From Escherichia coli (GTDB taxonomy: Bacteria > Pseudomonadota > Gammaproteobacteria > Enterobacterales > Enterobacteriaceae): DNA of 64,000 bases. The stretch is taken from NCBI RefSeq assembly GCF_003334315.1, contig NZ_QOWR01000004.1; one strand, written 5' to 3'. Position 1 is the first letter of the stretch. Each line of letters opens with the position of its first letter. Shown here piece by piece: positions 767 to 47,053 of the stretch. The notes beneath the pieces were generated by a model. That model ran no database searches. It saw only the letters and a list, made by a program, of their open reading frames with translations, and was not told the origin of the DNA. The translations under genes were made by a program, and so were the position numbers.

Positions 767-1780
767 ATGAGCGTAATTGAAACTGCAACTGTGCCGCTCG
801 CACAACAACAGGCTGACGCACTGCTGAACGTGAAAGATTTGCGTGTCACCTTTAGTACCCCGGACGGCGACGTCACGGCGGTCAATGATTTGAATTTTTC
901 CCTACGTGCCGGAGAAACGCTGGGTATTGTAGGTGAGTCTGGTTCGGGTAAATCGCAAACTGCATTTGCGTTGATGGGCCTGTTGGCTGCCAACGGACGT
1001 ATTGGCGGATCGGCAACCTTCAATGGGCGTGAAATCCTCAATTTGCCAGAGCATGAACTCAATAAACTGCGCGCTGAACAAATCTCAATGATTTTTCAGG
1101 ACCCAATGACTTCGTTGAATCCCTATATGCGCGTCGGTGAGCAGTTGATGGAAGTGCTGATGCTGCATAAGAACATGAGCAAAGCTGAGGCGTTTGAAGA
1201 GTCGGTGCGGATGCTCGATGCGGTAAAAATGCCGGAAGCGCGTAAACGCATGAAAATGTACCCGCACGAATTTTCTGGCGGCATGCGTCAGCGAGTCATG
1301 ATTGCGATGGCCTTGTTATGTCGACCTAAGCTGCTGATTGCGGATGAACCAACAACTGCGCTGGACGTCACCGTACAGGCGCAGATCATGACGCTATTAA
1401 ATGAACTGAAGCGGGAATTTAATACCGCCATCATTATGATCACCCACGATCTTGGCGTGGTGGCGGGGATCTGCGACAAAGTGCTGGTAATGTACGCCGG
1501 GCGCACGATGGAATATGGCAACGCGCGCGATGTCTTTTATCAACCCGTTCATCCTTATTCTATCGGTTTGCTCAACGCGGTGCCGCGTCTCGATGCGGAA
1601 GGTGAAACAATGTTGACCATCCCGGGTAATCCGCCAAACCTGCTGCGATTACCGAAAGGTTGCCCGTTCCAGCCACGTTGTCCGCATGCGATGGAAATTT
1701 GTAGTAGCGCACCGCCGCTGGAAGAGTTTACGCCTGGCCGTCTGCGTGCTTGCTTTAAACCGGTGGAGGAACTGTTATGA
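767..1780 (+). CDS. oppD: Oligopeptide ABC transporter ATP-binding protein OppD
   Basis: 337-aa ORF; Walker [12 protein letters not shown] signature FSGGMRQR, Walker [13 protein letters not shown]; Cys-rich C-terminal tail; length and sequence match recalled OppD. Confidence 0.95.
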   Translation: MSVIETATVPLAQQQADALLNVKDLRVTFSTPDGDVTAVNDLNFSLRAGETLGIVGESGSGKSQTAFALMGLLAANGRIGGSATFNGREILNLPEHELNKLRAEQISMIFQDPMTSLNPYMRVGEQLMEVLMLHKNMSKAEAFEESVRMLDAVKMPEARKRMKMYPHEFSGGMRQRVMIAMALLCRPKLLIADEPTTALDVTVQAQIMTLLNELKREFNTAIIMITHDLGVVAGICDKVLVMYAGRTMEYGNARDVFYQPVHPYSIGLLNAVPRLDAEGETMLTIPGNPPNLLRLPKGCPFQPRCPHAMEICSSAPPLEEFTPGRLRACFKPVEELL

Positions 1781-2781
1781 ATGCTGTAACTGAAGGAAGA
1801 AAAGTCCTCCTTGAAATCGCCGATCTTAAAGTGCACTTTGAAATCAAAGATGGCAAACAGTGGTTCTGGCAACCGCCGAAAACGCTCAAAGCCGTCGATG
1901 GTGTCACTCTTCGCCTGTATGAAGGGGAAACATTAGGTGTGGTAGGGGAATCGGGATGCGGTAAGTCCACCTTTGCTCGCGCCATCATCGGTTTGGTCAA
2001 GGCGACCGACGGTCATGTTGCCTGGTTAGGTAAAGAGTTGCTGGGCATGAAACCCGATGAATGGCGTGCCGTTCGCAGTGATATTCAGATGATTTTCCAG
2101 GATCCGTTGGCATCGCTAAACCCGCGTATGACCATCGGCGAGATCATCGCTGAACCACTACGTACTTATCATCCGAAAATGTCACGCCAGGAAGTTCGCG
2201 AGCGCGTGAAGGCGATGATGCTGAAAGTCGGGTTATTGCCTAACCTGATTAACCGCTATCCGCATGAGTTCTCTGGTGGGCAGTGCCAGCGTATCGGGAT
2301 TGCGCGTGCTCTTATTCTTGAACCGAAGCTGATTATCTGTGATGAGCCGGTGTCGGCGCTGGACGTGTCAATTCAGGCACAGGTGGTCAACCTGCTCCAG
2401 CAATTGCAACGTGAGATGGGATTGTCATTAATTTTTATCGCTCATGACCTGGCCGTGGTAAAACACATTTCCGATCGTGTGTTGGTGATGTATCTCGGCC
2501 ATGCGGTAGAACTGGGGACCTATGATGAGGTCTACCACAATCCACTACATCCTTACACCAGGGCATTGATGTCGGCAGTCCCCATACCTGATCCGGATCT
2601 GGAGAAGAACAAAACCATCCAGTTACTGGAAGGGGAATTACCGTCGCCGATCAACCCGCCTTCCGGTTGTGTTTTCCGTACCCGTTGCCCGATTGCCGGT
2701 CCAGAGTGCGCCAAAACACGTCCTGTTCTGGAGGGGAGTTTCAGACACGCCGTTTCTTGCCTGAAAGTCGATCCGCTTTAA
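1777..2781 (+). CDS. oppF: Oligopeptide ABC transporter ATP-binding protein OppF
   Basis: 334-aa ORF; Walker A GESGCGKS, signature FSGGQCQRIGIARAL; start overlaps oppD stop (ATGA); Cys-rich C-terminal tail. Confidence 0.95.
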   Translation: MNAVTEGRKVLLEIADLKVHFEIKDGKQWFWQPPKTLKAVDGVTLRLYEGETLGVVGESGCGKSTFARAIIGLVKATDGHVAWLGKELLGMKPDEWRAVRSDIQMIFQDPLASLNPRMTIGEIIAEPLRTYHPKMSRQEVRERVKAMMLKVGLLPNLINRYPHEFSGGQCQRIGIARALILEPKLIICDEPVSALDVSIQAQVVNLLQQLQREMGLSLIFIAHDLAVVKHISDRVLVMYLGHAVELGTYDEVYHNPLHPYTRALMSAVPIPDPDLEKNKTIQLLEGELPSPINPPSGCVFRTRCPIAGPECAKTRPVLEGSFRHAVSCLKVDPL

Positions 2782-18980: not shown

Positions 18981-19008
18981 AAAAAAAAGCCCGCTCATTA
19001 GGCGGGCT
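18981..19008 (-). terminator. trp attenuator (3:4 terminator hairpin + U-run)
   Basis: Minus strand reads agcccgcctaatgagcgggcttttttttg between trpL and trpE; stem agcccgc/gcgggct followed by an 8-nt T-run. Confidence 0.9.
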
Positions 19009-19050
19009 GGGTATCTGATTGCTTTACGCATGGTGAATACACTGCCCGTT

Positions 19051-19095
19051 TCAGGAAGTGCGCCACCAACCTTTCAGTACGAAAATTGCTTTCAT
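19051..19095 (-). CDS. trpL: trp operon leader peptide ([14 protein letters not shown])
   Basis: Minus strand reads atgaaagcaattttcgtactgaaaggttggtggcgcacttcctga: 14 codons with tandem Trp codons tggtgg, 92 nt upstream of trpE. Confidence 0.95.
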
Positions 19096-31474: not shown

Positions 31475-31846
31475 TTATCATCATTCTTATTACCCATTTT
31501 TAATGAATTACAGGGCTTTTAATACACCGCAGCAATAACAGGTTGAGTTATCTCAACACAAAGTAATAACCGTTAAGGGTGTAGCCTATGATCAACACAA
31601 ATATGAAATATTGGTCCTGGATGGGCGCGTTTTCTCTGTCGATGCTCTTCTGGGCCGAACTCCTCTGGATCATTACTCACTGATCCCTGACCCCGTTGCG
31701 GCGGGGTTTTCATTTGCTTTGCCACAAGGTTTCTCCTCTTTTATCAATTTGGGTTGTTATCAAATCGTTACGCGATGTTTGTGTTATCTTTAATATTCAC
31801 CCTGAAGAGAATCAGGGCTTCGCAACCCTGTCATTAAGGAGGAGCT

Positions 31847-46264: not shown

Positions 46265-47053
46265 TTATTTCAGTTCGAGTTCGTTCATTGCAGCAATGCT
46301 GAAACCGCCGTCAACGTGGACCACTTCACCGGAGATACCGGCAGAGAGATCGGAGCACAGGAATGCCGCAGAGTTACCCACATCTTCAATAGTAACGGTA
46401 CGGCGAATCGGGGTAACGGCTTCGCAATGAGCCAGCATTTTGCGGAAGTCTTTGATACCGGAGGCCGCCAGAGTACGGATCGGACCAGCAGAGATGGCGT
46501 TAACACGCACACCTTCCGGACCCATCGCGTTCGCCATATAGCGCACGTTCGCTTCCAGAGACGCTTTTGCCAGACCCATAACGTTGTAGTTCGGGATAGC
46601 GCGCTCAGCGCCAAGGTAGGAAAGGGTCAGCAGGGCAGAACCCGGATTCAGCATGGAGCGGCAAGCTTTTGCCATTGCAACGAAGCTGTAGGAGCTGATG
46701 TCGTGGGCAATTTTGAAGCCTTCACGGGTAACGGCGTTAACATAGTCACCATCCAGCTGATCGCCAGGTGCAAAACCAATAGAGTGTACGAAACCGTCAA
46801 ATTTCGGCCAAACTTTCCCCAGTTCAGCGAACATGGTGTCGATGCTGGCATCTTCTGCAACATCGCACTGCAGAACGATGTCAGAACCCAATTGAGCGGC
46901 AAATTCTTCTACGCGGCCTTTCAGTTTGTCGTTCTGGTAGGTGAATGCCAGTTCAGCTCCTTCGCGGTGCATCGCCTGAGCGATACCGTAGGCGATGGAT
47001 AGTTTGCTGGCAACACCGGTTACCAGAATGCGCTTACCGGAAAGAAAACCCAT
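46265..47053 (-). CDS. fabI: Enoyl-[acyl-carrier-protein] reductase (NADH)
   Basis: 262-aa [43 protein letters not shown]...; matches recalled FabI. Confidence 0.97.

Follow-up and report, generated by a model that had tools for sequence, protein, structure and literature searches.

The cysteine-rich C-terminal tails of the ATPases OppD, OppF and SapD correspond, as read from their sequences, to the [4Fe-4S]-binding domain of Opp/Dpp-type ATPases, an assignment which in the case of SapD is made by homology. All three proteins are encoded in the window, by which we mean the whole 64 kb stretch of Escherichia coli DNA that was analysed. Such a tail is already known for the Opp/Dpp family, and OppD and OppF are the very proteins whose structure has been solved. 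SapD is predicted to be a straightforward further member of the family, and its partner SapF carries no such domain, a genuine asymmetry that is maintained among sap operons and that nevertheless has precedent. It is highly probable that the three ATPases bear the family Fe-S domain in a structural role, where we infer both the occupancy of the SapD site and the roles within Opp and Sap.

Cysteine motif and C-terminal domain

Gene assignment was made with NCBIfam, all four ATPases of the two systems scoring above the curated cut-offs:

767..1780, plus strand: oppD CDS, 337 aa, D-type ATPase of the oligopeptide permease (NCBIfam OppD, 678 bits, cut-off 575)
1777..2781, plus strand: oppF CDS, 334 aa, F-type ATPase of the oligopeptide permease (NCBIfam OppF, 714 bits, cut-off 540)
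48650..49642, minus strand: sapD (trkE) CDS, 330 aa, D-type ATPase of the Sap transporter (NCBIfam SapD, 753 bits, cut-off 627)
47842..48648, minus strand: sapF CDS, 268 aa, F-type ATPase (NCBIfam SapF, 589 bits, cut-off 452)

The window belongs to the core chromosome of E. coli. Among 5,426 complete E. coli genomes, 5,424 contain the oppDF stretch (700-2800) at 95% identity or more, and the conservation of OppD and OppF is read from this region identity rather than from a separate sample of orthologues.

In OppD, OppF and SapD an ABC domain (Pfam ABC_tran), in which the Walker A, Q-loop and Walker B motifs were aligned, is followed by the Pfam domain PF08352 (oligo_HPY), and the four-cysteine sites lie in or just past the latter:

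1508..1777, plus strand: OppD C-terminal Fe-S domain, residues 248-337 (oligo_HPY at residues 248-312, E 1.3e-21)
1661-1663, 1679-1681, 1700-1702 and 1751-1753, plus strand: codons of OppD C299, C305, C312 and C329, aligned to the DppD ligands
2506..2778, plus strand: OppF C-terminal Fe-S domain, residues 244-334 (oligo_HPY at residues 244-311, E 1.6e-19)
2668-2670, 2686-2688, 2707-2709 and 2758-2760, plus strand: codons of OppF C298, C304, C311 and C328, aligned to the DppF ligands C293/299/306/323
48653..48931, minus strand: SapD C-terminal predicted Fe-S domain, residues 238-330 (oligo_HPY at residues 238-305, E 4.4e-17)
48769-48767, 48751-48749, 48730-48728 and 48682-48680, minus strand: codons of SapD C292, C298, C305 and C321, aligned to the DppD ligands

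Each of the three C-termini contains C-x5-C-x6-C and then a fourth cysteine, separated from the third by x16 in OppD and OppF and by x15 in SapD. The peptides and reading frames quoted in a preliminary description of this DNA are exact and the common spacing that it pointed out is there; the second spacer, given in that description as six or seven residues, is six in all three proteins.

The same description had mentioned reports that tails of Opp/Dpp ATPases bind a [4Fe-4S] cluster, and the literature bears this out. Cryo-EM of the E. coli transporter DppBCDF revealed that C284/290/297/315 of DppD and C293/299/306/323 of DppF each ligate a [4Fe-4S] cluster by way of the C-terminal domain (PMC12136057), while purified E. 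coli DppD displays a UV-visible spectrum typical of Fe-S proteins and contains about 4-5 Fe per monomer (bioRxiv 10.1101/2021.04.01.438105). An Fe-S-binding C-terminal domain in the Opp/Dpp family was first described with PDB 4FWI (Li et al., Acta Cryst D 2013, cited in PMC12136057). That entry, the DppD NBD of Caldanaerobacter (Thermoanaerobacter) tengcongensis, was found here by both sequence and fold searches, and represents the ATPase of a thermophile alone instead of a full transporter. When dppD and dppF of K-12 MG1655 were translated, cysteines were located exactly at the published ligand positions, and in our alignments these ligands share columns, one-to-one, with the cysteines of OppD, OppF and SapD. 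An alignment of the OppD, OppF, DppD, DppF, SapD and SapF tails, a comparison proposed in the preliminary description, contains four cysteine columns shared by all of them save SapF.

For OppD and OppF the search of structure databases led directly to PDB 8Z21, the solved E. coli OppBCDF. Residues 1-336 of OppD match its chain C (E 5.9e-224) and depart from it at a single position, G230 in the window and V in the entry, and OppF is its chain D, the tail of which has one substitution (A325 in the window, S in the entry). The next relatives were E. coli DppBCDF (8Z1V-8Z1Z), Mycobacterium tuberculosis OppABCD (8J5Q-8J5T) and the isolated DppD NBD mentioned above. Since the protein pair encoded in the window is essentially that of 8Z21, the Opp part of this finding rediscovers a solved structure. 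No paper describing or citing 8Z21 was found in the literature search, and we assume cluster binding by OppD and OppF from the sister Dpp structures. The conserved cysteines in the C-terminal extension of DppD/F and OppD/F are also drawn explicitly in bioRxiv 10.1101/2021.04.01.438105.

The case for a cluster in SapD

SapD shares 43-44% identity with DppD, and its last 80 residues alone match DppD in HMMER with all four cysteines aligned (E 5.6e-14). The preliminary description had made its proposal depend on conservation of the cysteines across orthologues, and such conservation was found. Among 120 Enterobacterales SapD clusters (72-100% identity) the motif is kept in 116; three of the other four have frameshifted or truncated C-termini, and in the fourth, a singleton (P0009), the last cysteine is replaced by Phe. 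Single-NBD orthologues at 48-55% identity retain all four cysteines. In an alignment of 30 sequences, comprising SapD orthologues together with the E. coli Dpp, Opp and Ddp paralogues, the invariant positions include C292, C298, C305 and C321 as well as P283, P289, G291 and R297.

A single-chain AlphaFold model of SapD, built from this alignment of 30 sequences, has a mean pLDDT of 88; for residues 281-320 the block means are 87-90. Prediction of the tail's structure had been suggested beforehand, and the resulting fold agrees with the solved cluster-binding domains: the model superimposes on DppD (8z1w_C) over 327 columns with a TM score of 0.90 and an rmsd of 2.2 Å, and on both OppD (8z21_C) and the first NBD plus Fe-S domain of M. 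tuberculosis OppD (8j5r_D) with a TM score of 0.91, whereas relatives devoid of the Fe-S domain align to it over just ~263 columns. Taken with the homology to DppD, these data suggest that SapD very probably binds a [4Fe-4S] cluster. Full-text literature searches retrieved no paper in which a cluster in SapD was reported or tested, and a review on Sap and AMP is silent on Fe-S.

The SapD/SapF asymmetry and its precedents

The statement in the preliminary description that SapF lacks the motif is correct. SapF consists of Pfam ABC_tran alone, with no oligo_HPY and not a single cysteine, and stops ~25 residues past its HELT motif (the counterpart of HPYT) with a conserved short tail, HFGEALTADAWR. 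The Cys motif is found in none of 120 SapF ortholog clusters, 69 of which have no cysteine at all. A length of 266-272 aa is shared by 107 of the 120; the remainder are mostly shorter fragments, apart from one product of 318 aa that arises by frameshift. The gene order sapA-B-C-D-F present in the window recurs around the distant SapD relatives for which there is enough contig (loci L007 and L009), and in the distant sap operons the D subunit has 332-338 aa and an oligo_HPY domain, while the F subunit has 250-264 aa, an ABC domain only and no cysteine. A truncated or frameshifted sapF gene, or an error of annotation, is ruled out by the 107 clusters at 266-272 aa, the conserved tail and the 250-264 aa F subunits of the distant operons. 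One 599-aa SapD-SapF fusion (P0241), which comes from one short-read contig and departs from the separate genes through a frameshift at the stop codon, was set aside as a probable assembly error.

Within E. coli K-12 the motif is present in OppD, OppF, DppD, DppF, DdpD, DdpF and SapD and absent from SapF, NikD, NikE and both halves of GsiA and YejF. Among the seven systems compared (Opp, Dpp, Ddp, Sap, Nik, Gsi and Yej), Sap is the sole mixed one, with the motif in one ATPase and not in the other. NikD/NikE, GsiA, YejF and the M. tuberculosis DppD (PDB 8WD9), for which the absence of an Fe-S domain is reported (PMC12136057), belong to the same ATPase family and are motif-free like SapF, but in these neither NBD has the motif.

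A precedent is M. tuberculosis OppABCD (OppD is Rv1281c; PDB 8J5Q-8J5T; Yang et al. 2024 NSMB, as described in PMC12136057), which like Sap has one Fe-S domain, placed after the first, D-type, NBD. Its OppD is a fusion of the order NBD1-FeS-NBD2 with no Fe-S domain after the F-type NBD2 (PMC12136057). The best sequence match of SapD in the PDB is precisely NBD1 plus the Fe-S domain of this protein, and SapF matches best the domain-free NBD2 of M. tuberculosis DppD and, next, NBD2 of M. tuberculosis OppD (E 4.2e-78). In the mycobacterial OppD both NBDs are in one chain, whereas those of Sap are separate polypeptides, so that SapF must dock without a covalent link to the Fe-S domain.

Furthermore, we surveyed the fused homologues among the best 150 representatives at 50% identity, of which 143 are two-NBD fusions. 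The Cys motif follows both NBDs in 119 of them, NBD1 only in 18, NBD2 only in three and neither in three. Transporters with two clusters, with one and with none all occur, the usual one-cluster form being that in which the D-type ATPase has the site and the F-type does not. The asymmetry that the preliminary description had singled out in the sap operon is therefore genuine and conserved, but less unusual than had been implied, as the M. tuberculosis OppD and the 18 of 143 fused homologues exemplify; it merits a brief mention and does not amount to a discovery.

The E. coli DppBCDF (PDB 8Z1V-8Z1Z) is of the same family as Sap and has the same split D and F ATPases, with C-x5-C-x6-C-x16/17-C as its motif. 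In Dpp, however, both ATPases have the domain and both domains are reported to be indispensable (PMC12136057), whereas in Sap the domain belongs to the D subunit only; the assembly rule for Sap is thus not identical to that of Dpp. Since SapF is a truncated F-type ATPase and SapD alone has the domain, a single cluster is to be expected in the Sap transporter, the same number as in M. tuberculosis OppABCD.

Probable role of the cluster and its possible implications

The most likely role of the cluster is a structural one, that of an oxidation-sensitive element which keeps the translocator in one piece. The ATPases of Opp/Dpp (PepT-type) importers consist of an NBD and, after it, a small C-terminal domain made up of oligo_HPY and ~20 further residues, whose four cysteines (C-x5-C-x6-C-x15-17-C) ligate one [4Fe-4S] cluster. 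According to the mechanism favoured here, the cluster would stiffen the small domain, which a stable translocator needs, and its oxidative loss would destabilise the complex. In the relatives studied by experiment, the assembly of two permeases and two ATPases fails to form or comes apart when the cluster-bound domain is missing. A role in assembly is established for Dpp (PMC12136057) and, as cited in the same paper, for the M. tuberculosis Opp. Replacement of the cysteines by serine in either DppD or DppF abolished pull-down of the complex, and CuCl2 or persulfate broke up pre-formed DppBCDF (PMC12136057). By analogy, we infer that the domain would play the same structural role in OppBCDF and SapBCDF.

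Other readings of the cysteine pattern were considered. That it is a compositional coincidence, lacking any common origin or function, has nothing in its favour beyond the short length of the motif and can be practically dismissed: when each of the three proteins was shuffled 200,000 times, the full four-cysteine pattern arose 10, 17 and 43 times, so at most 43 times for any one protein, and a six-frame scan of the window returned it solely at the three homologous sites of OppD, OppF and SapD, which all belong to the same Pfam domain. Shuffles and scan together rule out an origin by chance. A second reading concerns SapD, whose cysteines might bind another ligand such as Zn2+, or might be the relic of an ancestral Fe-S site, leaving SapD as cluster-free as SapF. 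In other respects the Sap ATPases are indeed divergent: the signature motifs of both subunits are non-canonical (LTEGE in SapD), as are the D-loop and H-loop motifs, and the paralogues SapF, NikD, NikE, GsiA and YejF have lost the site entirely. A relic would be expected to decay, yet the four cysteines together with P289, G291 and R297 are invariant down to 48% identity, and both the spacing and the predicted fold of the SapD tail match the cluster-binding domain of DppD. Moreover, the E. coli paralogues without the function are also without the cysteines, which argues that those retained in SapD are in use. We thus regard a cluster-free SapD as quite improbable.

A rather different proposal, which we find doubtful although appreciably less so than the preceding ones, is that the cluster acts mainly as a sensor and not as a scaffold. 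Oxidative stress or iron limitation, by removing or oxidising the cluster, would then shut down peptide import by Opp and the function of Sap, including the support that SapD gives to Trk, and transport would in this way follow redox or iron status. The dissociation of DppBCDF by oxidants in vitro agrees with this possibility, and the authors of that study left domain functions beyond stabilisation for later investigation (PMC12136057). In addition, iron depletion and defects in Fe-S biogenesis alter the reactivity of cysteines in DppF and OppD, that of an OppD cysteine rising when iron is depleted (bioRxiv 10.1101/2021.04.01.438105), and SapD is TrkE, which the Trk K+ uptake system of E. coli requires (Sap/AMP review). 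Against it, the literature searched contained no case of in vivo regulation by cluster state for any member of the family, and a sensor would extend the structural role and not replace it; sequence cannot separate sensor from scaffold. The scaffold thus remains the preferred reading.

For OppD and OppF the present analysis changes nothing, the family Fe-S domain having been known from structures since 2013 and the E. coli Dpp and Opp translocators that include it having been solved in 2025. If SapD carries a cluster as predicted, it would be one more E. coli Fe-S protein, and Sap would represent a natural split-subunit, one-cluster transporter, useful for exploring functions of the domain other than assembly. 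As SapD supports Trk K+ uptake, we may further speculate that a labile cluster could connect redox or iron status with ion homeostasis. That the Fe-S domain makes SapD-dependent functions hinge on cluster status, both the assembly of SapBCDF (putrescine export, peptide or heme handling) and the TrkE role in Trk potassium uptake, is on present evidence improbable; if true, it would reveal an unrecognised link between iron or oxidative stress on the one hand and K+ and polyamine homeostasis on the other.

The SapF tail and a probably artefactual SapD-SapF chain

SapF contains no cysteine, and at the place where the C-terminal four-Cys [4Fe-4S] domain would be it carries a short tail, which is strongly conserved in Enterobacterales.

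47845-47919, - strand: conserved short tail of SapF, HFGEALTADAWR (residues 244-268)

A clustered homologue sequence from a Logan contig (P0241, 599 aa) joins SapD and SapF in one chain, because at the sapD/sapF junction the stop codon is lost and the reading frame shifts. A natural fusion is the less favoured reading of this sequence, which is probably an assembly error, as it is known from one short-read assembly and shows a frameshift at the junction itself.

Opp proteins, RNA elements and the sap neighbourhood

Comparison of the OppD and OppF proteins of the window with the chains of PDB entry 8Z21 (E. coli OppBCDF) gave a single mismatched residue per chain.

1454-1456: OppD residue 230, G in the window and V in 8Z21
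2749-2751: OppF residue 325, A in the window and S in 8Z21

The OppD difference lies directly C-terminal to the H-loop (HDLGVV in the window, HDLVVV in 8Z21), and the two differences may represent either strain variants or construct differences. Two Rfam matches within the window exceed the gathering score.

31515-31717, + strand: STnc180, an enterobacterial sRNA (200.8 bits)
18981-19074, - strand: tryptophan operon leader (93.1 bits)

In distant sap operons a FabV-type enoyl-ACP reductase is encoded directly 3' of sapF (L009:6774-7964 and L010:2239-3429), and in the window a further ORF is found about 0.8 kb downstream of sapF.

46265-47053, - strand: 262-aa ORF, which we take to be fabI

The sapF-reductase neighbourhood is conserved between the window and the distant operons, even though the reductase family differs if our assignment of fabI holds.

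Divergent features of the two Sap ATPases

The helical subdomain of SapD contains a conserved segment without counterpart in the Dpp and Opp paralogues, which could provide a contact surface peculiar either to Sap or to the role of SapD as TrkE.

About 49240-49300, - strand: Trp/Arg-rich segment of SapD (residues about 115-135)

Non-canonical ABC motifs are present in both ATPases and are conserved throughout the 120 ortholog clusters compared for each protein.

48650-49642, - strand: sapD, non-canonical motifs at residues 161-165 and 186-190
47842-48648, - strand: sapF, non-canonical motifs

SapD has LT(E/D)GE as its signature where LSGGQ is canonical, and its D-loop reads N-A/S-M-E rather than S-A-L-D. 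The signature of SapF is LAPGQ, and its H-loop reads T-Q-H in place of the usual (S/T)-H-D. The Walker-B Glu is moreover missing in SapF of two distant loci (D-S in L009 and D-Q in L008). Judged from these motifs, a deviant signature would be expected in both composite ATP sites of SapD/SapF, which suggests that the ATPase behaviour of this pair is atypical.
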